IMG/VR virus record: IMGVR_UViG_3300049137_000054
Location: 1-29,969 of that record
From: a virus
Lineage: Duplodnaviria > Caudoviricetes
Length of the DNA: 29,969 nt
Reading direction: 5' to 3' (one strand)
The notes under the pieces were generated by a model that had not been told where the DNA came from, searched no databases, and saw only the letters and a program-made list of their open reading frames with translations. Position numbers and translations under genes: made by a program. Positions within the stretch are counted from its first letter, which is position 1. Each line of letters starts with the position of its first letter. Below, one piece after another: positions 7,338 through 29,887 of the stretch.

Positions 7338-8825
7338 TCACAGCGCCTGCCGGCGCCGTTCGATGGTGACGCTGGCCGGATCGAAGCCGGGCCCTCTGCG
7401 GGTGGTGGGATTCACGATCACCCGCAGCAGGGCCCGAACTGTTGCCGAGCGCACGTCCAGCGGCTCGTCCGCCCACTGCTCGGCGCTGATACCCACCATG
7501 CGCGAGAGCTGCTTGTCGACGGCCACCGCCTTGAGCCGGTTGCGCAGCATGGCGATCTTGGTGTCGAAGCTTGCGATGGCGGCCAAGGCGAGGCCTGCGT
7601 CGAGCCCGGGGTGATCGGCCAGGTTCTCGATCTGCTTCCGCCGGTCACGCCGTTGCCGCTCGAGCTCGGCGATTTCCGATACGAGCCCCTGGTCCGCTGT
7701 GACCGCGGCCAGTTCCTCACCCAACCGGGGATCCTGCAGCAGACGGAGGGCGCGCCCCTCGACGTACGCGTCCAGCAGCTCGACGCTCCGGCCCACCTTC
7801 TTGCAGCCCGGGCAGTAGTAGACCCGCGCCGTCTTCCGGTTCCGTCCACCAGATGGCTTCGTGCCCATGTACGTGCCGCACAGGCCACACTCGGCACCGC
7901 CGACCCCTGACAGCAGGTAAACCCGCTCACGCCCCGCGTACGGGCTCTCCTCGGCGCTCCGGCGGTACAGGGCCCGAACGTCTTCCCATGTCTCCCGGGA
8001 AAGGATGCCGTCCCACGCGGCCTCGTACAGCTGTCCGTCTCGCTCGATCAGCCCTGCGATCCGCGGGGAGAGCATCAGGTTCCGCAGGGTCTTGGCTCGC
8101 CAGAGGTTGCCCTCCGTGGTCCTGCAGGGCACAGCGTTCATCCACCGGACGACAGCCATCTGGTTCTGGCCCGCCAGCAGCTGCTCGGCGGCCTCCCGAA
8201 GGATGGCGGCCTCCTCGGGCACCTGCTGGTTGGTGTCGTACTCGGGGGCCTCGGTGCGCGTCCCCGTCTGTCGGTCCACCTTCGTGCGGGTGCCGACCAG
8301 GACGCCGTACCCGAACGGCCTGCGACCGCCGGCCTGGGTGAGTCCCTTCTCCAATCGAGCGGTGAGAGCGCGACGTACACGGCGGCTGGTGTTGTCCGAC
8401 TCGCGGCAGGCCTGCGCGGCCTCGATGCGCAGGATGAACCGATCGTCCGGGCTGTCGAGGTCCCGCGTACCGGAGGGCGACGCGATGCGCAGGCCCTTGG
8501 CGTCGGAGATGCTGATCAGCTTCTCGAGGTCGTGCGGCTGCCGGATGAGCCGGTCACCGTGGTAGACGATGATGCCGTCGATCTCGCCGTCGTCGATCGC
8601 CTGCAGCATCCGGTCCCACTGCGGCCGCTTTCGGTTTCTCTGCCATGCCGAGCGACTGTTGTCGGGAAAGATGTGAGCCTCGCTGATGGCCCAGTCGAGG
8701 CGCGCCGCAAGGTCCCTGCAATCGGCCTCCTGGCGCTCGACCTTCTCGAGCGATCCGTCCGGCGCGTACGAGAGCCGGCAGTAGATTCCCGCCCGCTGAG
8801 GGGGCGTCTGCATCCTGTGCATCAT
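7338..8825 (-). CDS. int: Large serine integrase
   Basis: Catalytic YCRLS, DN.RSA, RPQWDRML, DRLIR; recombinase domain (GGRRPFGY); zinc ribbon CGLCG...YYCPGC; coiled coil. Start uncertain among 8834, 8825, 8822 and 8813. Confidence 0.95.
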   Translation of the reverse strand: MMHRMQTPPQRAGIYCRLSYAPDGSLEKVERQEADCRDLAARLDWAISEAHIFPDNSRSAWQRNRKRPQWDRMLQAIDDGEIDGIIVYHGDRLIRQPHDLEKLISISDAKGLRIASPSGTRDLDSPDDRFILRIEAAQACRESDNTSRRVRRALTARLEKGLTQAGGRRPFGYGVLVGTRTKVDRQTGTRTEAPEYDTNQQVPEEAAILREAAEQLLAGQNQMAVVRWMNAVPCRTTEGNLWRAKTLRNLMLSPRIAGLIERDGQLYEAAWDGILSRETWEDVRALYRRSAEESPYAGRERVYLLSGVGGAECGLCGTYMGTKPSGGRNRKTARVYYCPGCKKVGRSVELLDAYVEGRALRLLQDPRLGEELAAVTADQGLVSEIAELERQRRDRRKQIENLADHPGLDAGLALAAIASFDTKIAMLRNRLKAVAVDKQLSRMVGISAEQWADEPLDVRSATVRALLRVIVNPTTRRGPGFDPASVTIERRRQAL

Positions 8826-8834
8826 GCCGAGCAA

Positions 8835-8888
8835 GTGTAGGTGTCTATGGACCTGTTAGGGAGCTAACGGGTCAGGAAACACCTATAC
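8835..8888. other. attP site for the serine integrase
   Basis: gtgtaggtgt-N5-gacctgttag-ggag-ctaacgggtc-N5-acacctatac. Both arm pairs are 9/10 inverted repeats about one axis (8861/8862), immediately upstream of int. Confidence 0.85.
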
Positions 8889-8914
8889 AAGCGCTGAGTG
8901 ATAGTCCCTGGTCA

Positions 8915-9030
8915 CAGCACCGAGCCCCCGGAGCACGGGCTCCAGGGGCTCGGCTGGCCGCTCCCGCCTGCCTGGGAGCAAGGACAGGGAGGGCCGTCTA
9001 TGGGAGGGGCGCTGGGCCCCACATGTTCTT
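8915..9030 (-). ncRNA. Possible small structured RNA
   Basis: Gap with no convincing ORF, divergent from the small XRE gene. Contains CU-rich tracts and two hairpins, ending in a strong stem-loop. No family recognised. Confidence 0.25.
8920..8953. terminator. GC-rich stem-loop next to attP
   Basis: ccgagcccc-c-ggagc-acgg-gctcc-a-ggggctcgg. Confidence 0.6.
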
Positions 9031-9092
9031 GATCGAAAAATGCGACAGGCCTGACGCTGACACAGCTTTGATCAAGTTCCACGGTTTGTCGA

Positions 9093-9323
9093 GTGCCGAG
9101 CGAAGACGAGTGGATCCATGACCGACGTCGGCAGCTCGGTGACCAGCTGCGTGAGCGCCGCCTGTACGCGAACTTGACCCAGGAGGCTTTGGCGGACCTG
9201 ACGGGCATCGATCGTCGGACGCTGCAGCGGTTCGAACGTGGCACCAGCGATCCCACGTACGGGCGTCTCCTTCGCATCGCCCGTGCCCTTGCCGTACCGG
9301 TCGAGGACCTCGTACGGGAGTAG
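9093..9323 (+). CDS. Small XRE-family HTH regulator
   Basis: LGDQLRERRLYANLTQEALADLTGIDRRTLQRFERGTSDPTYGRLLRIARALAVPVEDLV; no obvious RBS, possibly leaderless. Confidence 0.9.
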   Translation: MPSEDEWIHDRRRQLGDQLRERRLYANLTQEALADLTGIDRRTLQRFERGTSDPTYGRLLRIARALAVPVEDLVRE

Positions 9324-9364
9324 CCCCGGCCGGCCTGCGACGGGGGACGCAGACCGACCAGGGC
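9323..9364 (-). terminator. Terminator hairpin between convergent genes
   Basis: 17-bp stem that pairs fully only on the minus strand (three G-U pairs), 8-nt loop. Confidence 0.75.
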
Positions 9365-9380
9365 AGTCGAGGCCAACAGC

Positions 9381-9758
9381 TCACGCTGTGGGATGCGAGA
9401 GCGTCTCGTAGTGGCCGCACAGTGACACGACCGACATCGCGAGCTTCCTGGCGTGCCGACGGAAGGCGTCGTGGCCTGGGCCAGGCGTCGTGGTCAGCCT
9501 GCGCTGGGCCTCCATCACGCCGACGAGCGCCACCTGCGCCTCACGGTCCTCCGGGTGGCTGGCGCGGATGATGGCCTGGAGGTCGGCGATCAGGAGCTCG
9601 ATGTGCCCGCGCATCGTGATGGCGGCGACCTCCACCTCGCCGATGCTCAGCCGCTCGAGCAGTACCCGCCGGGCCGTCTCCTGCATCGTGAGGACGTCGA
9701 GCGGTAAGGCGGCCGCCTCCACGCCGGCGTCGAGCGTTCCTCTGCCGTCCTGTGTCAT
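9381..9758 (-). CDS. DUF6415-like helical protein containing a TTA codon
   Basis: PLDVLTMQETA...MRGHIELLI...EAQRRL...ARKLAMSVVSLCGHYETL recalls streptomycete DUF6415 (recognised from memory). In-frame TTA at 9707-9705. Confidence 0.75.
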   Translation of the reverse strand: MTQDGRGTLDAGVEAAALPLDVLTMQETARRVLLERLSIGEVEVAAITMRGHIELLIADLQAIIRASHPEDREAQVALVGVMEAQRRLTTTPGPGHDAFRRHARKLAMSVVSLCGHYETLSHPTA

Positions 9759-9822
9759 GGGTCCCACCTGACTGTCTCGGTAATCTCGTCATCACCGAAG
9801 GTAGGTACGCATGCGAGAGGCC

Positions 9823-9843
9823 AGGGGCAGCATTCCTGCCCCT
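9823..9843. promoter_or_regulatory. Perfect palindrome AGGGGCAG-N5-CTGCCCCT
   Basis: Lies about 20-40 nt upstream of a TACCTT -10-like hexamer (9803-9798) for the DUF6415-like gene. Could be an operator or a short terminator. Confidence 0.5.
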
Positions 9844-9858
9844 CGCTCATCCGTTCGG

Positions 9859-11109
9859 TTATGCGGCGAGCAGGCCCACCTTCGCCGCCAGTTGTGAAGC
9901 ACGCCGCCGGCGCTCGGGTGACTTCGCTTCGGTCTCCTCGAGGATGATCCGGCGGGCGTAGCCGTTGTAGCGGATCGTTTCCGGCGCGGCCTCGTGCGCG
10001 CGGTCCAACGTGTCGAGGGCGACGTCCGGTTGTCCGTCCAGCTGGTAGCCGCGGGCCTCCTCGATCCGGTGCCGGGCCAGGCGTGGCCGGGACGGGATCG
10101 CGGTGGCGTCGGCGCGCACGGCCTGGCGCACACTTTCGCCTCCGGCGCGCAGCTCGACGGCCACCGTGACGGCGTGGGCGCCCATGATGGCCCGGGAGAA
10201 GCTGGTGATGGGGTGGTAGTACGCGGCGTCCAGCTTGCGGGCGGCCTTGTCGGCCTTGTCCCACCACGCCCAGGCGGTGGCCGTCTCGCCGCGGCGGGCG
10301 GCCGTGTAGCCAGCCTCGAACTGGAGCGCTCCGGCGATGGCGATGACGCGGTCCTCGGCGGCCGCCAGGTGCGGCTCGAGGTAGCGCAGCGCCTCGAGGT
10401 TGACGGCGTCGGCTGCGTCGAAGTGCCGGGGGCCGGAGTCGCGGTGGGCCTGGGCGGCGAGCCAGGCGGCGACACCGATCGCGTGCGGGTCCTCGGACTC
10501 CTGTGCCGCGACCATGCCGCGCTCGGCGACGCGCCACAGCAGGGCAGAGTCGGGCTGATAGGCCACGAAGAACTGGCAGAGCGAGTACACCTCGGAGAGC
10601 ACGGCCTGCGCAGCGCGGCGCTCGGGAGCGGTGTCGGCATGGCGGACGGCCAGCTGCGCGTCGCGGATCAGGTCGGGCAGGAGCTCGCCGAGGACTTCGC
10701 GGTGGTTCGGCGCTGTGTGCCGGGCGGCCCAGGCGCGGGCAAGCCGGTGCTGCAGGTGGGCAGTTGGCGGCGGCGCCTGGTCGGCGGCAAGGGGGAAGGC
10801 GTCCACGGCGGCCTTCACGGCGGCGAGGCGCGGGTGCCCCGGGCCGATGAAGAGGTCGACGGGCGCGGTGACGTCTCCGGTCAGCTCGGAGAGGTCACGG
10901 ACGCGGAGAGCTTCGGCGATGCGCAGGATCATGGGCAACTTGGGGACGTGAATCTGGCCGGTCTCGATCTGCTTCAGCCAGGAGGGCGACATGCCGAGCA
11001 GCCCGGCGAGGACAGGGCGGCTCATGCCGCGGCGGGTGCGGAGAATTTGCACGCGTTGCCCGAACACCAGCTGGCTGGAGTACGGGTCGGGGGTAGCATC
11101 AGATGACAC
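9859..11109 (-). CDS. XRE-HTH regulator with large helical (TPR-like) C-terminal domain
   Basis: FGQRVQILRTRRGMSRPVLAGLLGMSPSWLKQIETG, then about 320 aa of Ala-rich helices; GTG 11109 after GAGAGGGG. Confidence 0.85.
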   Translation of the reverse strand: MSSDATPDPYSSQLVFGQRVQILRTRRGMSRPVLAGLLGMSPSWLKQIETGQIHVPKLPMILRIAEALRVRDLSELTGDVTAPVDLFIGPGHPRLAAVKAAVDAFPLAADQAPPPTAHLQHRLARAWAARHTAPNHREVLGELLPDLIRDAQLAVRHADTAPERRAAQAVLSEVYSLCQFFVAYQPDSALLWRVAERGMVAAQESEDPHAIGVAAWLAAQAHRDSGPRHFDAADAVNLEALRYLEPHLAAAEDRVIAIAGALQFEAGYTAARRGETATAWAWWDKADKAARKLDAAYYHPITSFSRAIMGAHAVTVAVELRAGGESVRQAVRADATAIPSRPRLARHRIEEARGYQLDGQPDVALDTLDRAHEAAPETIRYNGYARRIILEETEAKSPERRRRASQLAAKVGLLAA

Positions 11110-11187
11110 GGCCTTGCCCCTCTCTGAACAGCTCGACACTGTCAGGGTATGGGGCAGGGCCGATTCTCGTGAGCCCCATGGGGAATG

Positions 11188-13721: not shown

Positions 13722-16700
13722 TCACAGGGGGATGTAGTTCGGGCGGGCGAGCTCCACGGCGGCGCCTGCCGTGTGGGCCTTGACCACACCGTTGATGGAC
13801 CGGGCGACGGTGAAGACTTGCGGGTTGTTCCAGAGCAGGTTGTCGACCTGGAAAGTGACCGGCAGCGGGTTGGTGACCCCGGAATCCAGCAGCGTGCGGA
13901 CACCGATGGAGCCCGCAGCGGTCAGGGCGCTGTCCGTGGCGGTCACCTGCCAGTTCGGCGGCTCCCCGCGGTCACGTAGCCACACCTTCGCGGCGAGGCT
14001 GTTGCCCTGCACCGAGAGCCGCACGGTGTACCAGGCGCCGGCGGTGTACGTCAGGCCCGTCGCGAACGTGGCCAGCTGGGTTTCGGCGCCGTCGCGTTTG
14101 CGGAGGGACAGTGTCATCGCGCCGCCCGCGGCGATGTGCAGCCGGGCCAGGTAGGCGTGGGTGCTGTCGGTGTACCGGGCCATGAGGAAGGCGTAGGCGG
14201 CGGCGCCGGTGGGGACGACGCCGAGGGACACGTCTGCCCGCAGGTCCACGTTGGCGGCGGGCGCCGCGGCGAGCGCGGTACGGAACAGGCCGGCGGTGCT
14301 GTGGATCTGGCGGCCGGTGCCGCCGGTCACCGCGAAGTCGGACGAGGCCGCCCCGGAAACGGTCCAGGCCTGCCCGCTGTCGGCGGAGCCCCAGCCGTTG
14401 GCGACGGTGCGGCCGAACGCGTCGGCGGCCGCCTGCGCGACGGCGGAGACGGTCATCACCTCCCCACCGACCCTGATGTCGAACGGCATGTCGCCCGGGT
14501 AGGTCGCCGAGTCGATCCAGACCGGGCCCTGGGTGGTGGCCACGGTGAGCGTCGTGTCGTCGGTGTCGATCGCGGCCACCAGCTCTGAGCCCGCGGTGTC
14601 GAGGCGGGATGCCTCGCCGGCGTCGAGCTGCAGCACGTCGTACGGCTGGCCTGGGGTGCAGTTGAAGGTGATCTGCCAGTCCTCGCCGATCGTCTCGGTG
14701 TAGCCGCGGACGAGGAGGTCGACGTCGTCCGGCCCGTACTGCTCCGGCGGCAGATTGGTGAGCCGGATCTTGTCGCCGACGTCCAGGCGCAGGATGCGGT
14801 CGGCCATGGCGTAGACGCGTGGGTTGCCGAGCTTGAGGGTGATCGACGTGAACCGCAGTCCGTCGTAGGTGCCGGTGTGCATGATCCAGGAGGCGAGCTG
14901 GTCGGCCTGCCCGTCCTCGGCGAGCGACAGGGTGTGTTCCCGGTCGTAGCGGCCGACGCCGTCCGGCGGGTCGAGGACGGACATGCGGCCCTCCTCGAGG
15001 ACCGCGGTGCCCTTGCTGCCGCCCTGGCGGGTGACCGTGACGTCGTTCTGGGTGTCCTTGTCGTCGTCCGTCGGCTTGAACGGGGCGGCGATCACCTTGT
15101 CCGCCCAGTCGAGGGTGAGGATCGGGGACTGGCTGTACAGCGTGGACCGGGCCCGGAAGACCAGCGCCCGGTCGTCGCGCTGCTCGAGCACGTATCCCCG
15201 CTCGGACAGGGCGGTGCTCTGCAGCACGTCGAGGAACTTTTCCCGCTGCTGCGTGCCCATGGCCACCTGGCCGTCCGGAGCTCCGGACACCGACAGGGGC
15301 ACCCCCTGCTCGGTGGCGACCCGCAGGGCCCGCGCCCCGGCGCTCTCGCCGGGGAATCCCATGAGTGCGTCGTACGTGTCGGAGGCGGCGGGCAGCGCCG
15401 CGTTATACGGCCACGCGGTGACGTAGCCGACCGACAGATCTTCCTGGCTCGCTCCCCAGGAATACTCGATGCGGCGCAGCGGCCGGACGGCGACACCGGT
15501 GTCGCCGCTGGCCCGCTCGACTCCGTCCAGGGACAGGGACCAGGACGCGGTGGCGCCGGACTGGATCACCTGGAAACGCACATGGTGCGGCAGGCCGTCG
15601 AAGATCCCCGCTGCCGTGATGCTGCCGAGCGAGGTGCCCGAGGAGGCGTCCGTTCCTATCGACTCCCGGAAAATGAGGATCTTGTCCAGCGGGGCCTGGA
15701 AAAGGAGCTGGAAGACGTGCCGATTTTGGGCGTCGGTGCCCGCGCCCCAGTCGCGCGCATACAGGCTGTCGACCTCGCCGGGCCCGGAGCGGACGTGGTC
15801 GACAGCCCAGCCGCCCGCCATGCTGGCCTGGTAGTCGAGGCTGGCCGACAGCCGCCCGACGCCGGGCAGGGAGACGACCGGCTCGATCCAGTCGGCGATC
15901 TCGCCCTCGCCCCAGAGAGGCGGATCGTCGTCGGCCTGACGGGAGTAGGCCATGGGGGCCGCGCCGAACAGGGATGCGCCCTGCGTGGCCTCCGTGCCGT
16001 CGGTGAGCGGCCAGCATTCGACCGCGCTGCTTCCCGCGATGTAGCGGCGCAGCGCGCTGTCCAACGGCTTGTTGCCGATGCCGAGTCGGCGGGTGATCCC
16101 ACTCGGCTCGATGGACACGGTGCGGTCCGCGCCGGACAGGTTCCGCTCCGGCGGCCACGCCGGCACTTCGCCGGCGAGCCTGGTGTGCCGGTTGGACAGG
16201 GATGCGGTCCCGGTCACGGACCACACCCGTCCGGTGGCGTCGGTGAAGTTCGTGTCTCCGGCTGCGGCGTCGCGGGCGGTGTCGACGTTGACCTTCAGGG
16301 TGCCGTTGATGCCGTCGTACACGCGGATCCCGTGCGCCTTGCCCCTCAGACGGTCGATGCCGGATGTGCCGTCCGGCGTGAGGGACAGCTGGTTGTCCCC
16401 GAGGTACAGCGCCCCCGTGGCGTTGAACAGGCTGGTGGTGCCGGACCCGGTCGGGGTGATCGGATCGCCGATCAGGGTCCACGTCTCGGCGTCGAGGGTC
16501 TTGGCGTAGGAGAAGACGACGGTGCAGCCGCCGCTGCCGTTGTTGACGTCCAGCGTCGCCCGGACCGCCAGTCGTTCGCCCGTGTGGGCGGGCACTGCCG
16601 TGCTCGAGATGGCCCACCGCTTGTTGGCGTCCAGCCCGGTCGGCGACCACCAGAAGACCAACTGCCCGTCCTGGTGCAGGGCGAGCGCCCAGTGGAAGTG

Positions 16701-17108
16701 TCCGCCGGGCCCCCAGCGCAGGGCCAGCATCTGCGGGCTGTCCCAGGAGTTGGGGGCCACGTCCACCCGGACGTCGATGTCGCCGAGGACGTCCAGGGCG
16801 GCGGCGTCCGGGGTCGACACCGAGTAGACGCCCGCCGGCAGGTCGAGGTACGGGCCGCCCGCGTCGACCGAGAAACGCAGCGGCGTGTTCCGTCCGATCG
16901 CCCCATACAGCGGGCTGTTCGGGTTCCGCGGCGAGTAGTCGCCGGACCGGTTGTCCAGGAGCATGCTGCCCGCGGTCGGCTCCGCGCGGGAGCCTTCCGC
17001 GGACACGCCTCGGCTGATGGTGACCGCGGACCGCTCCAGCACCGGAGCGGTGTTCCACTGCCCGTCGTAGTACAGCTCGGTGGTGCGGGGCGGTGGCAGA
17101 CGCACCAT
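13722..17108 (-). CDS. Large minor tail (tail tip) protein with LamG/ConA-like domains
   Basis: Follows the tape measure; TISRG...LDNRSGDYSPRNPNSPLYG, WPLTDG, FTVARSINGVVKAH motifs. Confidence 0.85.
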   Translation of the reverse strand: MVRLPPPRTTELYYDGQWNTAPVLERSAVTISRGVSAEGSRAEPTAGSMLLDNRSGDYSPRNPNSPLYGAIGRNTPLRFSVDAGGPYLDLPAGVYSVSTPDAAALDVLGDIDVRVDVAPNSWDSPQMLALRWGPGGHFHWALALHQDGQLVFWWSPTGLDANKRWAISSTAVPAHTGERLAVRATLDVNNGSGGCTVVFSYAKTLDAETWTLIGDPITPTGSGTTSLFNATGALYLGDNQLSLTPDGTSGIDRLRGKAHGIRVYDGINGTLKVNVDTARDAAAGDTNFTDATGRVWSVTGTASLSNRHTRLAGEVPAWPPERNLSGADRTVSIEPSGITRRLGIGNKPLDSALRRYIAGSSAVECWPLTDGTEATQGASLFGAAPMAYSRQADDDPPLWGEGEIADWIEPVVSLPGVGRLSASLDYQASMAGGWAVDHVRSGPGEVDSLYARDWGAGTDAQNRHVFQLLFQAPLDKILIFRESIGTDASSGTSLGSITAAGIFDGLPHHVRFQVIQSGATASWSLSLDGVERASGDTGVAVRPLRRIEYSWGASQEDLSVGYVTAWPYNAALPAASDTYDALMGFPGESAGARALRVATEQGVPLSVSGAPDGQVAMGTQQREKFLDVLQSTALSERGYVLEQRDDRALVFRARSTLYSQSPILTLDWADKVIAAPFKPTDDDKDTQNDVTVTRQGGSKGTAVLEEGRMSVLDPPDGVGRYDREHTLSLAEDGQADQLASWIMHTGTYDGLRFTSITLKLGNPRVYAMADRILRLDVGDKIRLTNLPPEQYGPDDVDLLVRGYTETIGEDWQITFNCTPGQPYDVLQLDAGEASRLDTAGSELVAAIDTDDTTLTVATTQGPVWIDSATYPGDMPFDIRVGGEVMTVSAVAQAAADAFGRTVANGWGSADSGQAWTVSGAASSDFAVTGGTGRQIHSTAGLFRTALAAAPAANVDLRADVSLGVVPTGAAAYAFLMARYTDSTHAYLARLHIAAGGAMTLSLRKRDGAETQLATFATGLTYTAGAWYTVRLSVQGNSLAAKVWLRDRGEPPNWQVTATDSALTAAGSIGVRTLLDSGVTNPLPVTFQVDNLLWNNPQVFTVARSINGVVKAHTAGAAVELARPNYIPL

Positions 17109-22672: not shown

Positions 22673-22996
22673 TCAGTCGCTCGAGGCGTCGTCGTCGCCG
22701 CTGTCGGTCGTCGGCGCGTCGTCGTCGTGGCCGTCGGCGGTCTGCTCCGTCTCCGAAGAGGTGGCGCCGGCCGCCTTCTTGGCGGTGTTCCTGGGCGGGG
22801 TGTTGGTGGCCTGCCGCCGACCTGTGGGCTTGCCTGTGCCGGTCTCCCGCTTGGTGGCGGTGTACGGCTCGGCGTGTCCGGCGGCGATCCACGCGGTGGC
22901 CAGGGTCTCGTCCACCTCGGCCACCTGGCCGTCGTTGTAGCGGTGGCCGGCGCCGTCGGCGACCGATGTCACTGAGGTGATCCTGATCTTCTTCAT
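22673..22996 (-). CDS. Hypothetical protein following the capsid gene
   Basis: TGATG overlap; GQVAEVDETLATAWIAAGHAE motif plus a disordered tail. Confidence 0.75.
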   Translation of the reverse strand: MKKIRITSVTSVADGAGHRYNDGQVAEVDETLATAWIAAGHAEPYTATKRETGTGKPTGRRQATNTPPRNTAKKAAGATSSETEQTADGHDDDAPTTDSGDDDASSD

Positions 22997-24207
22997 CACG
23001 CGGCCGCCATGGTGAGGATGCGCAGGGCCTGCGGACGGATCACGTCGCCGCCGACCCGCTTGCGGATCTTCCAGCCGATCATGCCTTCCTCGGCGTACAG
23101 CTGGTCCAACACCTTGACGGTCATGCCCGCGCGGTCGTAGATGCGGTAGCCGGCGTTGAAGTCGCCGAAGGCCGCCACCCGGGCGGACGCCGCGATGACC
23201 GCGATGTCTTCCTGGTTCTCCACCGGGAAGCCCAGCAGGGAGGAGGGGCGGCCGGCCTGGACGCTCTGCTGCCAGATGTACTGGCCGTTGCCGTCCTTGA
23301 GCACGGAGATCGCGAGCTCCGTGCCGGACGGGATGGTGAAGCGCCCGTTCCTGCGGTACTGCGCAGGCGTGGCGTAGATCAGCTTCTTCAGGTCGTCCAC
23401 GCTGATCGTGGCGGCTGCCGCCGCAGCGACGGTGGGCACGCCTCCGCCGGGAGTCATGTAGCCGACCGGCTGGTGGGCGGCGTGTCCGGTGCCGACGGTG
23501 AAGGCGGTGTCCTCCGCCTCGGCGCACGCGCGGGCGAACGAGTCGCGGACGAACGCCTCGAGGTTCACGTCGGAGTCATCGAGCTCGTCCTCGCCGATCT
23601 TGGCCAGGCCGTAGAGGTCCTCGATGTACGTGAACTCTTCCTCGGGGGTGTTGGGCATCGAGTCGGTGAGCACCTGCTCGTTGGTCTCGAGCTTGCCCCA
23701 GCCCACGGACACCTCGGCCAGGCTGCGCCGGCGCACCCGGTTGGAGGTGATGGACCGCTGCGATGCGATGCCGCGCATGATCGTCAGCTCCGGCAGGGCG
23801 CGCGCGATCTCGACCTCGAGGTCCTCGGGCACGAGGATTTCACCGGCGGTGTTCTCCACCAGGGCGCGCTGCTCCGGGGCCAGGCGCGGCAGGCCGCGGC
23901 GCAGGGCCTGGAAGAACGCCGAGCGGCGCTCCTGGGCCCGCTGCTCGTTGCCGCCCGTGCCGGGGCCGTCGTCGGGCCGGTTGGCGCCGCGGCGGATCGG
24001 CTCGGCCATCTGCGCCGCGCGCTGCTCCTCGGCCTCCCGGCGCTCGATGCGCTCGGTCAGGCCGGCGAAGTCCGTCTCGTGCTGGTCGTAGGCGGTGCGT
24101 TCCTCGACGGACAGGCCGCGGTTCTCGCCCTCGGCCCGCTCGGTGATGGCCCGCATCGACTCAACGACGCCGGCCCGCTGCTGACGCAGCTCCACGCTCG
24201 TAGGCAT
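22996..24207 (-). CDS. Major capsid protein, HK97 fold with delta (scaffold) domain
   Basis: N-terminal coiled coil; AGEILVP, LKDGNGQYIWQ, LLGFPV, FGDF, RVGGDV. Confidence 0.95.
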   Translation of the reverse strand: MPTSVELRQQRAGVVESMRAITERAEGENRGLSVEERTAYDQHETDFAGLTERIERREAEEQRAAQMAEPIRRGANRPDDGPGTGGNEQRAQERRSAFFQALRRGLPRLAPEQRALVENTAGEILVPEDLEVEIARALPELTIMRGIASQRSITSNRVRRRSLAEVSVGWGKLETNEQVLTDSMPNTPEEEFTYIEDLYGLAKIGEDELDDSDVNLEAFVRDSFARACAEAEDTAFTVGTGHAAHQPVGYMTPGGGVPTVAAAAAATISVDDLKKLIYATPAQYRRNGRFTIPSGTELAISVLKDGNGQYIWQQSVQAGRPSSLLGFPVENQEDIAVIAASARVAAFGDFNAGYRIYDRAGMTVKVLDQLYAEEGMIGWKIRKRVGGDVIRPQALRILTMAAA

Positions 24208-24270: not shown

Positions 24271-25014
24271 TTACAGCTGGGCGAGCAGCTCGTACTCGCG
24301 CAGCTTGTGCTGGGCCCGCTCGAGCGGGTACGCCTCCGGCGTCGGGCCGGAGCGGTCGGCCGCATCGAGCAGCGCGTCCAGCGCGTCGCGCGCGTCCTGG
24401 ACGAGCTGGCGGTTCGAGGCGGACAGGACCTTGCCCGCGCGCATCTCGGCGAGCGCCCGGGTCACCTGCTCCGGGTCCGGCTGCTGGACGCTCTGGCCGG
24501 TGTGGCGGGCAGCTGCGGACCGCAGCTCGGCGGACGTGGCGGCGAAGGCGGGATACGTGACCACGGAGACGTCGCCGCCGTCCAGGTCGATGCCGTACAC
24601 CTCGTGGGTGTTGCCGGCCCAGCCGTCGGCGGTGACCCAGAACCCGAAGGACATCTGGGTGATGTCGCCACGCTCCAGCGAGACGGCGAGGTCGCGGGCG
24701 TAGGACACGTCTGCCATGCGCGCATCGACGTCCACGCCCTCTTCGGGGACTTCGGCCAGGTCTGCGGTGCCGGCCGCGGTGCGGGCCAGCAGGAGGTTGG
24801 GGTCGTGGTTGATCAGGAACCGCACATCGGGCGACTGGCTCAGGGTGCGGGTGGCGGCGCCGGGCATGATGCGCTCGCGCCAGCCGCCCATGTCCTCGGA
24901 CAGGGAGTTGTAGACGATGCTCCGGCCGTGGAACTCCAGGCGTCCCAGCTTCTCGTCAGCCCGGGTGATCCGCAGGTTCTGCAGCGGGAAGGCCCGCACC
25001 TCACGCGTGCGCAC
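24271..25014 (-). CDS. HK97-family prohead maturation protease
   Basis: ERIMPGA, FLINHD, QMSFGF, DVSVVTYPAF. Confidence 0.93.
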   Translation of the reverse strand: MRTREVRAFPLQNLRITRADEKLGRLEFHGRSIVYNSLSEDMGGWRERIMPGAATRTLSQSPDVRFLINHDPNLLLARTAAGTADLAEVPEEGVDVDARMADVSYARDLAVSLERGDITQMSFGFWVTADGWAGNTHEVYGIDLDGGDVSVVTYPAFAATSAELRSAAARHTGQSVQQPDPEQVTRALAEMRAGKVLSASNRQLVQDARDALDALLDAADRSGPTPEAYPLERAQHKLREYELLAQL

Positions 25015-25026
25015 GACGGCGCCTCC

Positions 25027-27480
25027 TCACAGGTTGAATTGGAGCCGGCAGGTGCATCCGGCGATCTCGTCCACGCCGAGCCGGTGATCGTGCGGCCAGC
25101 GGCCCTTGCGCGTGCCGATGGAGAACTCGTCGCGGATGTCGACGGTCTGGCCGTCCGCCTGCCGGTGGGTCTTCCTGGGGTTCGCGTCCCACACGCGCCA
25201 GGTCTTGGTCCGCGCTCCAGCCTGCTTGGCGCCCTCGTGGCCGGCGAAGTTCGTGGTCTGGGAGACGCGCGCCTGCGCCAGGACCTTGGCCCGGGACTCG
25301 GTCATCTTGTCGAACATGTCCCGCGCCGATTTCTGCACCTCGACCGGCGACTGGGCCAGGTTGATCGTGGACCTGAGCTTTTCGATCGTCGTGCCGTTGA
25401 CGTTCGCCGCGGTGGACGCGGCCGAGGCGGCGAGCAGCGCGGAGGTCTCCTCGAGGACGAACGCGCCGCCGAGCGCGGCCGCGGTCGCGGAGCCGACCTC
25501 TGCCGTCAGCCCGCGGGCCAGCTGCAGCAGGATCTCCGTCAGCAGCTCGTTGTCCGTGACCAGGTCGATCAGGTCGTCGGCCGACGCGTCAGGGGTGATG
25601 CCGAGCGCGGCCAGGACCCGCTCTCCCTGGTCGGCGAAGTAGGCGCTGATCGCTTCGAAGTGCCGCTGGATCCACGACGGCAGCTCGTCCGCGGCCGGCG
25701 TCTCGACGCTGTCCTCCGCGCGGCGGTGCGGCGCCTGCAGCCCGGCCCGGGTGCCGCTCATCATGAACCCGGCCCGCTGCTCTCCGGTCGCCAGCGTCAG
25801 CTCATCGAACCCGACGCCGACCGGCTCCACCGGCTCCGGGGCTTCCTGTCCCTCCTCGAGGTAGGTGAGCGTCATGTGCGGGGTGAAGCCGTGCCCGGTG
25901 TCGACCGGGACACCGGCCGCCTCGAGGCCTTCCACCAGGCGGTGACGCAGCTCGGCCAGACCGGGCACGTCGACCGTGGCGAAGTACGGGGCCACCGTGC
26001 CGTCGCCGGGGAATCGGCCCAGCCCGCCGACGGTACCGGCGAGCGCCTGGTGCTGCGCGGCGATGCCGGCCACCACGGTCATGGCGTCCGCGTGCTGCTG
26101 CTCGGTCAGGTCCTCACCGAGGTAGGCGAGGGTGACGTGCAGCTCGTCGGCAGGCAGGCCGCCCTCGACGGCCAGCTGCTCGGCGACGTCGGCCGGCGGG
26201 AACAGCGCGACCATCGTGGCGCCCTCCGGCACGTCTCCAGCTGCTCGAAGCGCCGGACGCGGCAGCGCCCGCTGCTCCGGCGGTGCGGCCTGTCCGGCCG
26301 GGGACATGTTCAGCGGGACGATGTAGTCGTCGCCGCCCTCGATCGGCGGCTCGTCCTCCTTCGCGCGAATGTCGTTGACGGACATCCACCCCCACTGGCG
26401 GGCCTGCGCGTACCCGGCGAACCGCTGTTGTGTGTCACCCCGCAGCAGAGCGTCCGGGTTGAACTTCAGGTACAGCGACGGGCTGCCGAAGAGTCGGTTC
26501 GTGGTGCGCTCGAGGCGGGTCAGCCACGGCATCAGCGAGTAGATGACGTAGCCGAGGGACTGCTGTTCGATGCCTGAGCCCCAGGACGTGGACCGCTCGA
26601 CGTCGCCGATCATGTGCGGCGGTACGCCGAAGATCCCGGCGATCTCGGCGCGGGTGAGTTTGTAGACCTCGAGGAACTGCGCGTCGGCCGGGGACAGGGT
26701 GGTCTTCTCCCACTTGGCGCCGGCCTCCATGAGGGCCAGGCGGTGGGCGTTGTCGAACCCCTCGTGGAGGTCGTGCCATTGACGGGTCAGCCGCTCGTAC
26801 TGCGTGTCATCGAGCTTCCCCGGCACGGACACGACGCCGCCGGGGGACGCGTCGCGCTGGAAGAAGCTGCCGATGTACGAGGTGGCGGCCCACCCGGTGC
26901 CGACCGACTGGCGGGCCATACCGATCGGGGACAGGCCCTCCGGCCCGCCGACGCCGAAGGACCGGAAGTGCAGGAAGTTCTCGGAGCGGACCAGGCCGTC
27001 AGGCTCGCGGATCGGCGCCCATTCGTCGTCGTCCAGCGTGATCTTCCAGACCGGTTCGCCGGTGTCCTTGATCCGGCGCTGTTCCACGCTGGTCCACGAA
27101 ACGGGCCACAGGCCCACCTCCCGGCCGGCCTGGTTCCGCTCGATGTAGACGCCGCCGTTGCCGCGGACCAGCATCCATCCCAGGACCTGCGCCCAGAACT
27201 CGCCTGCGGCCAGATGAGGGTTGGCCTGGTAGGTGAGCAGCGGCGCAAGCGGGTGCTCCATCGCGGGCACCCGTGTGTTCCCCGACTTCTGGAAGACACC
27301 GGTCGGCAGCATGCTGCCGGTCTCGGCGAGCAGCCGCACCGAGGAGAACACGGCGGCCACCTGCAGCGCACGCTCCGGGGTGACGGACACTCCCGCCGCC
27401 GTCGACCGGCCATCGAGGCGGGGCAGGCTCTTGCGGCTGCGCCGCTGGGTGCCTCCGAGGAGGCGTCGGATCAGCGGCAT
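25027..27480 (-). CDS. HK97-family portal fused to a 2H phosphoesterase (Acb1/LigT-like) and a MuF/gp7-like domain
   Basis: aa ~1-395 portal (GLSPI, EIAGIFGVPP, SWGSGIEQQ, MSVNDIRAKED). aa ~420-570 carry HVTL (26139-26128) and HMTL (25878-25867). C-terminus is MuF-like (KTWRV...RKTHRQADGQ...F...WPHD...EIAGCTC). Confidence 0.9.
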   Translation of the reverse strand: MPLIRRLLGGTQRRSRKSLPRLDGRSTAAGVSVTPERALQVAAVFSSVRLLAETGSMLPTGVFQKSGNTRVPAMEHPLAPLLTYQANPHLAAGEFWAQVLGWMLVRGNGGVYIERNQAGREVGLWPVSWTSVEQRRIKDTGEPVWKITLDDDEWAPIREPDGLVRSENFLHFRSFGVGGPEGLSPIGMARQSVGTGWAATSYIGSFFQRDASPGGVVSVPGKLDDTQYERLTRQWHDLHEGFDNAHRLALMEAGAKWEKTTLSPADAQFLEVYKLTRAEIAGIFGVPPHMIGDVERSTSWGSGIEQQSLGYVIYSLMPWLTRLERTTNRLFGSPSLYLKFNPDALLRGDTQQRFAGYAQARQWGWMSVNDIRAKEDEPPIEGGDDYIVPLNMSPAGQAAPPEQRALPRPALRAAGDVPEGATMVALFPPADVAEQLAVEGGLPADELHVTLAYLGEDLTEQQHADAMTVVAGIAAQHQALAGTVGGLGRFPGDGTVAPYFATVDVPGLAELRHRLVEGLEAAGVPVDTGHGFTPHMTLTYLEEGQEAPEPVEPVGVGFDELTLATGEQRAGFMMSGTRAGLQAPHRRAEDSVETPAADELPSWIQRHFEAISAYFADQGERVLAALGITPDASADDLIDLVTDNELLTEILLQLARGLTAEVGSATAAALGGAFVLEETSALLAASAASTAANVNGTTIEKLRSTINLAQSPVEVQKSARDMFDKMTESRAKVLAQARVSQTTNFAGHEGAKQAGARTKTWRVWDANPRKTHRQADGQTVDIRDEFSIGTRKGRWPHDHRLGVDEIAGCTCRLQFNL

Positions 27481-27656
27481 CAGTCGCCTCCTCCCTTGGG
27501 CCGGATGTTCCCGGCGATGATCAGCGGTACAGACAGGGCCAGCAGCGCGAGGCCGGCGCCGAGCACGCCCCCGAGCGCGACGCCGACCACCACCGCCCCC
27601 GCCCCTCCGGCCGCCAACCCGGCCAGTTCACACAGCCACTGAGCACGCTCGTGCAC
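27480..27656 (-). CDS. Small membrane protein between terL and portal (58 aa)
   Basis: MHERAQWLCELAGLAAGG...LALLALSVPLIIAG; TGATG overlap with the portal; not in the ORF track. Confidence 0.75.
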   Translation of the reverse strand: MHERAQWLCELAGLAAGGAGAVVVGVALGGVLGAGLALLALSVPLIIAGNIRPKGGGD

Positions 27657-27675: not shown

Positions 27676-29463
27676 TCAGCTGATGATGCGGATGTCCGGC
27701 GTGGCCTCTTCTTCGGGCTCGGCGCGCAGCAGGTGCAGAGCCAAGGCGTTCAGCCCGCTGGCCACACCGTCGATCCGCTTCGTGGACACCTGCCGGTCCG
27801 GCTTGACCGGCTTGCGGTAGCCGTCGGTGTTGGTCTTGATGCCGACACAGTCGACGTGCCAGGCCAGGATCGGGTGCCCGCCGTGCGACACCCGGTGCGA
27901 GAGCACCAGGCGCTCGAGCTCCTTGCACGGCTCGTTCAACCCTGCGTAGCCCTGCGAGACCTGCTCCATCTCGACCCCGGCGTCCATCAGCTCTGACACA
28001 GTCTCAGTCGCGTTCCACCGGTCGTAGCCGATGGACCTGATGTTGAACCGCTCGCCCAGGTCGTCGGTGATGAGCGACCGGATCGCCCGGTAGTCGACGA
28101 CGTTCCCTTCGGTCAGCCGAAGCGCCGGCCCGGCGTGGGCCGCGGTCTTGGACCAGCGCTCCAGCGGAACCTTCATGCGCCGCTCGAGGTCGCGCAGGTT
28201 GTCCTCCGGGAGCCAGAAGAACGGGACCCAGATGTGTGGCTCGGCTGGGTCGTCCGTCTCGGGCGGGAACCATAGGCTCAGCGCGGTCATGTCGGTGGTG
28301 GCCGACAGGTCCAGGCCGCCGTAGCAGTCGCGGCCCTCGAGCTCCTCGAGCTCCACAGGGATCGGCACCCCGGACGCGGTACGTGCCGACCGGTGCCAGT
28401 CGTCCATCGACAACCAGCGTGTCGTCTGTTTCGTGCGGACGTTCAGGTGCAGCCGCAGGTAGCGGTTCAGCTGCGCCGGGGACCGCTCGGCCTGGCGGGC
28501 CTTGCCCTCGAGGTAGTCGGCCAGCACGGTCACGCCGTAGCCAGGGTTGGCGGTGCGCAGCGTGTCCTCGGAGAACGGGTCGAAGTCCTCGGCCTCCTGG
28601 TCGGCGCCGAACACCACGCCGAACACCGTTGGGTCCTCGGCATGCCCGCCCGCCAGGGCCTCGATCTCCTCGCGCTTCGTGGCGTAGATGGATCCGGTCT
28701 CGGCCCCGTCGTCCGCCGTGGTGATGAAGATGATGAGCGGCTGCGCGCGGGAGCCCACGCCCGTCTCCAAGGCGTCGACAACGTCGGGGTTCCGGTGGAC
28801 GTGGACCTCATCGATCACGCCGCCGTGGACATTCAGGCCGTGCGCGCGCAGGCCCTCCGAGGACAGGGCCCGGAAGATGCTGTGCGTGGTCGGGTGCTCG
28901 AGCAGCTTGCGCTGAATGCCTCGGCGTCCCAGCTTCTTCTTCAGCGGCGGGCTGCCGGACGCCATGTTGGCCGCGGCCCGGAAGACGATGTTGGCCTGCT
29001 CGCGGTCGCCGGCCGCCGCGTATACCTCGGCGCCCTGCTCGCGGTCCGCGGCGAACAGGTACAGGCCCAGGCCGGAGCAGATGGTGCTCTTGCCGTTCTT
29101 GCGGGGGATCTCGAACCAGACGGTCCTGACCACCCGGTAGCCGTCCGGCCGCTTGAGCCCGAAGACGGGGGCGATCAGGTAGCGCACCTGCCAGTCCATC
29201 AGCCGGAACTCGCGCCCGGCGTGACGGCCGATCAGTTGCTTCAGTAGCAGGAAGAACTTCAGGACCCGCTCGACGGCCAGTAGGTCGAACCAGGTACCCG
29301 GCGGCGCCGGCAGTGGTGTGACGAGCAGCGGCCGGCGGCCCTGCGCCAGCCACTCCGTCCCGTCGACCAGGCCCTCATCGACCCAGGCCGCGATGGCCTG
29401 GTCGATCTCGGCGGTGAGCTGCGCCCGCAGCTGCTCAGTCGAGGATGTCGTCCTCCTGCTCAT
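27676..29463 (-). CDS. terL: Terminase large subunit
   Basis: Walker A PRKNGKS, Walker B VIDEVH, ITTA, nuclease GGLDLS, YDRWNA, KRIDG. Confidence 0.96.
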   Translation of the reverse strand: MSRRTTSSTEQLRAQLTAEIDQAIAAWVDEGLVDGTEWLAQGRRPLLVTPLPAPPGTWFDLLAVERVLKFFLLLKQLIGRHAGREFRLMDWQVRYLIAPVFGLKRPDGYRVVRTVWFEIPRKNGKSTICSGLGLYLFAADREQGAEVYAAAGDREQANIVFRAAANMASGSPPLKKKLGRRGIQRKLLEHPTTHSIFRALSSEGLRAHGLNVHGGVIDEVHVHRNPDVVDALETGVGSRAQPLIIFITTADDGAETGSIYATKREEIEALAGGHAEDPTVFGVVFGADQEAEDFDPFSEDTLRTANPGYGVTVLADYLEGKARQAERSPAQLNRYLRLHLNVRTKQTTRWLSMDDWHRSARTASGVPIPVELEELEGRDCYGGLDLSATTDMTALSLWFPPETDDPAEPHIWVPFFWLPEDNLRDLERRMKVPLERWSKTAAHAGPALRLTEGNVVDYRAIRSLITDDLGERFNIRSIGYDRWNATETVSELMDAGVEMEQVSQGYAGLNEPCKELERLVLSHRVSHGGHPILAWHVDCVGIKTNTDGYRKPVKPDRQVSTKRIDGVASGLNALALHLLRAEPEEEATPDIRIIS

Positions 29464-29887
29464 CGTCACCCTCCGGCTTGATGGAGCGCAGGCGCGCGTT
29501 CGGCGATGCGAACAGCTCGCGGCTGAGCTGCGCGACCACGCCGGCGGCCTCCCTCCACTGCTGCCAGGCGGGGTGCTTGCGCTCGGCGCCGCGGTGTCCG
29601 ATGACGGTGATGCCGTCGCGCTGGATCGCCTGCTCGGCCTGGACGAACTTGGCCCAGCTCGAGCAGTAGGTGGCCAGGACCGCGCGGTCCACCTGGGCCA
29701 GGACGCCGAGCCGGTCGAGGTCGGGGACGACCCTGCGCCACTCGGCCTTGGCCTCGCGGTCCAGCCAGCTCGGCGGGTTGGGTGCGCTGGGCTTGGCCGT
29801 CACGCGCTTCGGTGATGGCCGGCCGCCCGGGTTGCCGCGCAGGGCGCGCACGTTGGCCGGCATCGGGACGGGTCCACGCAGGCCCAT
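29435..29887 (-). CDS. terS: Terminase small subunit, P27 family
   Basis: RGPVPMP...LRGNPG, PPSWLDREAKAEWRRV, LATYC, KHPA, SPNAR; ATG after GGAGGT. Confidence 0.93.
   Translation of the reverse strand: MGLRGPVPMPANVRALRGNPGGRPSPKRVTAKPSAPNPPSWLDREAKAEWRRVVPDLDRLGVLAQVDRAVLATYCSSWAKFVQAEQAIQRDGITVIGHRGAERKHPAWQQWREAAGVVAQLSRELFASPNARLRSIKPEGDDEQEDDILD

Follow-up and report, generated by a model that had tools for sequence, protein, structure and literature searches.

An optional 2H phosphoesterase cassette between the portal and MuF-like domains of a phage head protein, flanked by candidate prohead protease sites

To our knowledge, the characterised destroyers of bacterial immune nucleotides (Acb1, Apyc1 and Acb5) are found as stand-alone proteins. 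In phage polyvalent proteins, 2H phosphoesterase domains are fused to MuF or portal domains, and RNase or signal-degrading roles were proposed for them in the passages on these fusions in Iyer et al. (2017, PMC5512222). The corresponding passages of Iyer et al. (2022, PMC9503650) proposed that such proteins are packaged and injected to counter SMODS, cyclic-mononucleotide and CRISPR signals. Within these passages the 2H fusion proposals come with no experiment, and our literature search found no experimental test of the head-fused 2H idea, which has been in print since 2017. Here we describe such a fusion in a temperate soil siphophage, IMG/VR virus record IMGVR_UViG_3300049137_000054. The window analysed is the entire virus record of 29,969 nucleotides, and the fusion is a single uninterrupted open reading frame (ORF) of 817 amino acids (aa) at 25027..27480 on the minus strand.

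The protein shares with the Iyer polyvalent proteins the 2H-portal/MuF fusion, the lack of a linked RNA ligase and the proposal of packaging and injection against SMODS or cyclic-oligonucleotide-based antiphage signalling systems (CBASS), cyclic-mononucleotide and CRISPR signals. A preliminary description of this DNA had put forward both the fusion and the counter-defence idea; both were already in those papers. The 2H passages there describe neither an optional portal-MuF cassette nor lineage-matched protease sites (figure 5B and the supplements lay outside the comparison). New here are the optional cassette, the lineage-matched flank motifs that suggest release, and a link to a virion peptide of phage GMA2, none of which turned up in our literature search.

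Doherty et al. (2025, bioRxiv 2025.08.21.671373) treat phage 2H phosphodiesterases, including 13 multidomain ones, some with proteases. The words portal, capsid and virion do not occur in the text compared; the supplementary tables lay outside the comparison and may include the present clade. Portal-MuF fusions are described in passages on Microbacterium phages and actinophages (PMC7302621). According to the relevant parts of that paper and of those on MuF toxins (Jamet et al. 2017, PMC5576092) and SPP1 gp7 (PMC6316719), these systems have in common with ours a MuF domain beside or fused to the portal and enzyme cargo brought into the head. Cargo is C-terminal to MuF in the MuF toxins but sits between the portal and MuF here. 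SPP1 gp7 occurs in 1-2 copies, whereas portal-borne cargo could reach 12.

We propose that the gene product is a head polyprotein with an optional, intact 2H domain between its portal and MuF-like parts. The domain would enter the prohead on the portal ring, be freed by the prohead protease of the phage at arginine sites on both sides, travel with the DNA and hydrolyse a small nucleotide signal of the host, probably one that serves anti-phage defence. Taken as a whole, we favour this reading tentatively, at a little under even chance. Its parts differ: the packaging of up to 12 copies is very likely and cleavage of the domain from the portal is probable, while retention and injection could go either way.

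In brief, the portal core spans aa 33-395 (26296..27384), linker 1 aa 396-417 (26230..26295), the 2H domain aa 418-574 (25759..26229), linker 2 aa 575-598 (25687..25758) and the MuF/SPP1 gp7-like domain aa 599-817 (25030..25686), all on the minus strand. A GGAGGAGG ribosome site lies upstream of the ORF. The single frame, the full HK97-type portal and the two HxT motifs named in the preliminary description all hold. The portal is matched by Pfam (PF04860; Phage_portal at aa 43-376, E 4.7e-93) and by TIGR01537 (229.9 bits against a cut-off of 112), and also fits the gene order terminase, fusion ORF, S78 protease. The Pfam family 2_5_RNA_ligase2 matches aa 441-547 above its cut-off (E 4.9e-13), and the protein has just two HxT/S motifs, HVTL (H448) and HMTL (H535). 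Of the three labels, MuF is the least secure. It stands on PHROG head-morphogenesis families matching the C-terminal part (phrog_2468, E 7.7e-20; phrog_3517, E 3.5e-9), on a folded helical domain in the model, and on the position of this domain directly after the portal. Phage_Mu_F (PF04233, aa 714-788, E 1.5e-4, 22.9 bits against 29.6) and TIGR01641 (13.3 bits against 39.65) stay below their cut-offs.

All three parts are strongly matched in 9/120 homologues among the matches listed (protein clusters P0002-P0010). In addition, an independent metagenome contig of 4,834 bases, from a diverged strain in another study (run X4), spans 24610-27539 across both junctions, and its match is interrupted only by a diverged stretch of 88 bases, equally long in both sequences. 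Run X1, which is identical and may itself be the source, was left out of this check. The fusion is thus not an assembly artefact, a possibility that the preliminary description had raised. The nearest named relatives are Streptomyces, Kitasatospora and Micromonospora records, which are among these nine.

The 2H domain is an optional cassette. We compared 19 IMG/VR loci, 12 close relatives and 7 distant plain portals. Two of the close loci have the domain, nine have an unbroken portal-MuF frame without it, and one has a stump. The proteins without it are 627-651 aa long (n=9; one truncated by the contig end past the junction). In the stump (L012:6001-8061) an in-frame deletion has left no more of the 2H domain than its final ~25 aa, between both linkers. 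A portal tree with 20 rows, one row having been omitted as a near copy of another, requires the domain to be gained or lost 4 times, and well-supported branches force at least 2 of these changes. The synonymous distance to locus L001 is 0.037 in the portal, 0.35 in the 2H domain and 0.52 in MuF. This tenfold jump at linker 1 (26230-26295) indicates a recent recombination that replaced the cargo half relative to L001.

Since the portal ring remains part of the virion, delivery would demand that the domain be cut off, a step that the preliminary description omitted. In the full-length model the protein forms three distinct domains; the segments that connect them, at aa 386-417 and 578-587, have a predicted local distance difference test (pLDDT) score below 50 and are predicted to be disordered. 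Two R-A/S motifs are kept per linker as candidate protease sites: EQR-A (R404) and ALR-A (R412) in linker 1, GTR-A (R578) and HRR-A (R587) in linker 2. The string PEQRAL of linker 1 is identical to the six residues at the scaffold junction of the HK97 major capsid protein (22996..24207, minus strand), where it stands at aa 111-116 (23860-23877), directly before the capsid domain. The string is kept in 10/11 close capsids, and one has PERRAL. The putative releasing enzyme, an S78 prohead protease (24271..25014, minus strand), carries such a motif on either side of its catalytic domain (EVR-A in EVRAF, ELR-S in ELRSA). Per 100 aa, the two linkers have 7.0 and 7.9 R-A/S motifs, the scaffold domain of the capsid 6.3 and the ends of the protease 5.4-10. 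The density is lower in the 2H domain (0.45), the remaining folded parts (1.3-1.7) and a set of ten control ORFs (1.5). From these sequences we infer an arginine specificity for the protease. The first 30 residues of the portal (27391-27480, minus strand) form a disordered N-terminus with 5.5 R-A/S per 100 aa, and may also be trimmed.

The flanking motif changes with the lineage. In HK97 portal fusions R-A/S occurs in 13/15 upstream and 12/12 downstream flanks of the 2H domain, and K and E motifs are absent; it is also seen in 6/27 of the protease fusions (K group). In the latter, E-x-K-A/S/T occurs in 27/27 upstream and 17/27 downstream flanks and in none of the other groups, although the upstream motif coincides with the end of the protease itself. 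Capsid polyproteins have R/K-x-x-E-A/S in 8/8 on each side, against 0/15 and 1/27 in the other groups. It should be noted that groups and motifs were picked after viewing the flanks, and that these counts cover 50 of 121 clade proteins in three sets of kin. As a hold-out, capsids were found in 4/80 loci, and the two distant ones roughly agree (L022 R-type, L039 K-type). Published passages on prohead proteases describe removal of the scaffold of HK97-type capsids and, in SPN3US, cutting of portal and internal proteins. Linkers that resemble the scaffold junction, together with flanks that switch with the lineage, suggest that the maturation protease releases the domain. A fourth candidate motif, (L/I/V/M)-(V/T/A)-A-(A/S), was seen in capsid and 2H-bearing proteins of Gordonia phages GTE6 and GMA2 (L182:4744-7596, 7978-9867; L184:7981-10632, 15295-16959), and GMA2 Orf10 has one copy 12 residues before its 2H domain.

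Relatives of the 2H domain tend to go with head proteins. With aa 415-580 as query, matches numbered 186 in the size class of 449-1430 aa and 9 in that of 91-291 aa. A relative is encoded in 296 IMG/VR stretches; 80 were kept, and 62 of the 80 ORFs were scanned, the two closest and 16 near-duplicates being left out. A portal, prohead protease, capsid or MuF domain is carried by 37/62. Portals are found in 14 (9 HK97, 2 Mu-type and 3 PF06381, three families), with MuF also matched in five of these; prohead proteases in 17 (6 S78, 10 S78_2 and 1 Mu-type, again three families); a capsid domain in 5; and MuF alone in 1. The remaining ORFs have DUF2213 (3), NUDIX (4) or a zeta-type kinase (1), are long without another Pfam match (15), or are short and stand-alone (2). 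With 37/62 fused to head proteins and 2/62 short and stand-alone, the domain appears to be targeted to the head. Long head-type proteins that join the same clade to NUDIX, ADP-ribosyltransferase or zeta/AAA_33 kinase were seen in L033, L069, L075, L090 and L058 and in P0048, P0083, P0054, P0107 and P0117. The clade is also present in cultured phages, where 356 INPHARED records match at E <=1e-3, mostly named 'RNA ligase', a name that stems from the Pfam label. In Edmundo and ET08 the gene lies in the head module. Such head-module 'RNA ligase' genes of actinophages (the Mycobacterium cluster with Bxz1/ET08, Gordonia, Arthrobacter and Streptomyces) belong to the same 2H clade and have the closest predicted viral structures; they occur either alone or joined to a protease or another head protein. 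We consider it possible, but doubtful, that phages of several lineages carry this one distinct 2H clade on head polyproteins, each with the flank of its own maturation protease, and that it is freed in the head, injected, and destroys an immune nucleotide before phage genes are expressed.

The active site is conserved across the clade. Among 121 clade 2H domains both catalytic His are invariant (121/121), and the complete HxT/HxT(S) tetrad is present in 120. In the present protein the motifs read H448-x-T-x-x-Y453 and H535-x-T-x-x-Y540. The last residue of the distal motif is Tyr in 118/121 and Arg in none; that of the proximal motif is Tyr in 115 and Phe in 6, the aromatic being retained. Net acidity is found in 118/121 domains, and the present one has 4 K+R vs 24 D+E. 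The ratio of nonsynonymous to synonymous substitution rates (dN/dS) of the 2H domain is 0.18-0.25 in three pairwise comparisons, and that of the portal 0.13-0.14; the 2H domain is under purifying selection. Its frequent loss (9/12 close loci and one stump) would suit a tolerated passenger, one that either remains attached to the portal or is degraded like the scaffold, and that contributes nothing to the infection that follows. We find this very improbable, given invariant catalytic residues with a dN/dS of about 0.2, the depletion of candidate cut sites within the domain (0.45 per 100 aa) and the repeated fusion to unrelated head proteins.

The AlphaFold model has the predicted 2H fold with a pLDDT of 90.4, in line with the preliminary description. 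That description had also leaned on Acb1 of T4, a kinship that our comparison does not bear out. Structure comparison of the model gives LigT/ThpR as the nearest solved folds, as they are the nearest sequences, with a LigT-type tertiary structure; the nearest structural neighbour is not Acb1, which scores far below LigT. The Acb1 profile PF23474 does not match the fusion protein at E <=0.01 and gives 20.5-21.1 bits on two distant clade members, below its cut-off of 27. T4 Acb1 scores 15.3 bits on the hidden Markov model of the clade, through the motifs only. Judging by the portions of Hobbs et al. (2022, PMC9117128) on Acb1 (T4 gp57B, FBB1), the two have in common the 2H fold, the HxT/HxT tetrad, a Tyr five residues after each His and the phage origin. 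Acb1 stands alone, is 152 aa long and has 69 residues separating the two His, against 87 here. Set at sequence level against its aromatic cage (Y12/W74/F107/W147), E141 and C-terminal lid, aa 418-574 contain no Trp, so that W74 and W147 have no Trp counterpart; the aromatics conserved in the clade, likewise at sequence level, are Y453, F490, F/W/Y500, F532 and Y540.

The comparison with LigT/ThpR bears on a further reading, in which the domain acts on RNA ends, either as a ThpR-like 2',3'-cyclic phosphodiesterase that heals RNase-cut tRNAs or mRNAs or as a Usb1-like RNase, as proposed in passages of Iyer et al. (2017). The nearest folds and sequences fit this, as does a P-loop kinase (zeta/AAA_33) fused in 3/120 homologues among the matches listed and in 1/62 ORFs, as in end-healing modules. 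However, E. coli ThpR, Thermus TT0787 and Deinococcus CPDase have HxTxxF/HxTxxR, whereas the motifs here are HxTxxY/HxTxxY. The distal Arg, reported as essential in the relevant part of a ThpR study (PMC4201822), occurs in 0/121 domains. The present clade is, moreover, strongly acidic and fused to phage head proteins. RNA ligase PF09414, the sole such family searched, was found in 2/50 carrier virus records and 0/13 near-complete ones, and Pfam gave no RNA ligase among the scanned window ORFs. An RNA-end role thus appears quite unlikely to us. The model and alignments suggest a distinct, acidic 2H clade of LigT fold with HxTxxY/HxTxxY.

For this clade a small substrate is suggested by the two HxTxxY motifs, as in T4 Acb1, by the acidity of 118/121 domains, and by the scarcity of RNA ligase PF09414, seen in 2/50 carrier virus records and 0/13 near-complete ones. 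Whether it is a defence nucleotide we regard as evenly balanced; candidates are CBASS-type cyclic oligonucleotides, 2'-5' linked nucleotides and 2',3'-cyclic nucleotides. SMODS cyclases occur in 16/251 sampled genomes of the host class, so that a CBASS target exists but is uncommon. Hydrolysis of ADP-ribose cyclic phosphate (Appr>p) would fit the distal Tyr, which is shared with yeast Cpd1 and Arabidopsis CPDase, as well as the NUDIX fusions (4/62 ORFs) and the fusions to ADP-ribosyltransferase PF03496 (P0048, P0083). This activity is discussed for viral 2H domains in part of PMC9503650, but we judge it improbable here.

One homologous domain has been found in virions. Gordonia phage GMA2 Orf10 was detected in purified virions (Dyson et al. 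2015, PMC4524720 S5), and it holds a 2H domain at aa 725-875 (E 4.7e-21). One of its virion peptides begins at aa 825 and covers H836, the distal HxT of this domain. The 2H proteins GTE6 Orf18 and GMA6 Orf12 are not in the virion lists of three proteins each, which makes one positive phage of three. These absences would suit the same counter-defence phosphodiesterase acting late in the producing cell. The head fusion would then match how much of it is made, and when, to the proteins that set off nucleotide-signal defences, and packaging would be incidental. Prohead protease and capsid proteins are reported as cues for CBASS and Thoeris in the passages of PMC13728456 on such triggers, delivery is limited to 12 copies at most, and stand-alone clade genes occur in head modules (ET08 gp84). 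A late promoter would suffice for this without any fusion, yet 37/62 ORFs are fused to head proteins, motifs lie on both sides of the domain, and the GMA2 peptide was in virions. We therefore consider late action unlikely. The virion-packaged anti-defence enzyme of the preliminary description is in keeping with the intact active site, the purifying selection, the head-protein context and the GMA2 domain, but is neither new nor specific to Acb1.

If true, a packaged, protease-released enzyme would act at entry and add a delivery route. The locus renders the idea testable: nearly identical phages differ in carrying the cassette, cut sites are predicted, and the clade occurs in 356 records of cultured actinophages. 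The flank motifs also suggest a way of finding other head cargo and of predicting the specificity of maturation proteases from sequence.

The phage has 70% GC and carries integrase, tail and amidase genes. The terminase large subunit, identified by a profile match, is encoded at 27676..29469 on the minus strand. Between terminase and portal lies a 58-codon hydrophobic ORF (27480-27656, minus strand), the stop of which overlaps the portal ATG by eye. A serine integrase, Cro-like and XRE-type regulators and DUF6415 at 7338-11139 indicate a temperate phage. A 1128-aa tail protein is encoded at 13722-17108 on the minus strand. Its aa 832-1127 match phrog_24476, 'phosphodiesterase', at E 8e-93 with no Pfam match, and this name may be a label transferred from another domain.
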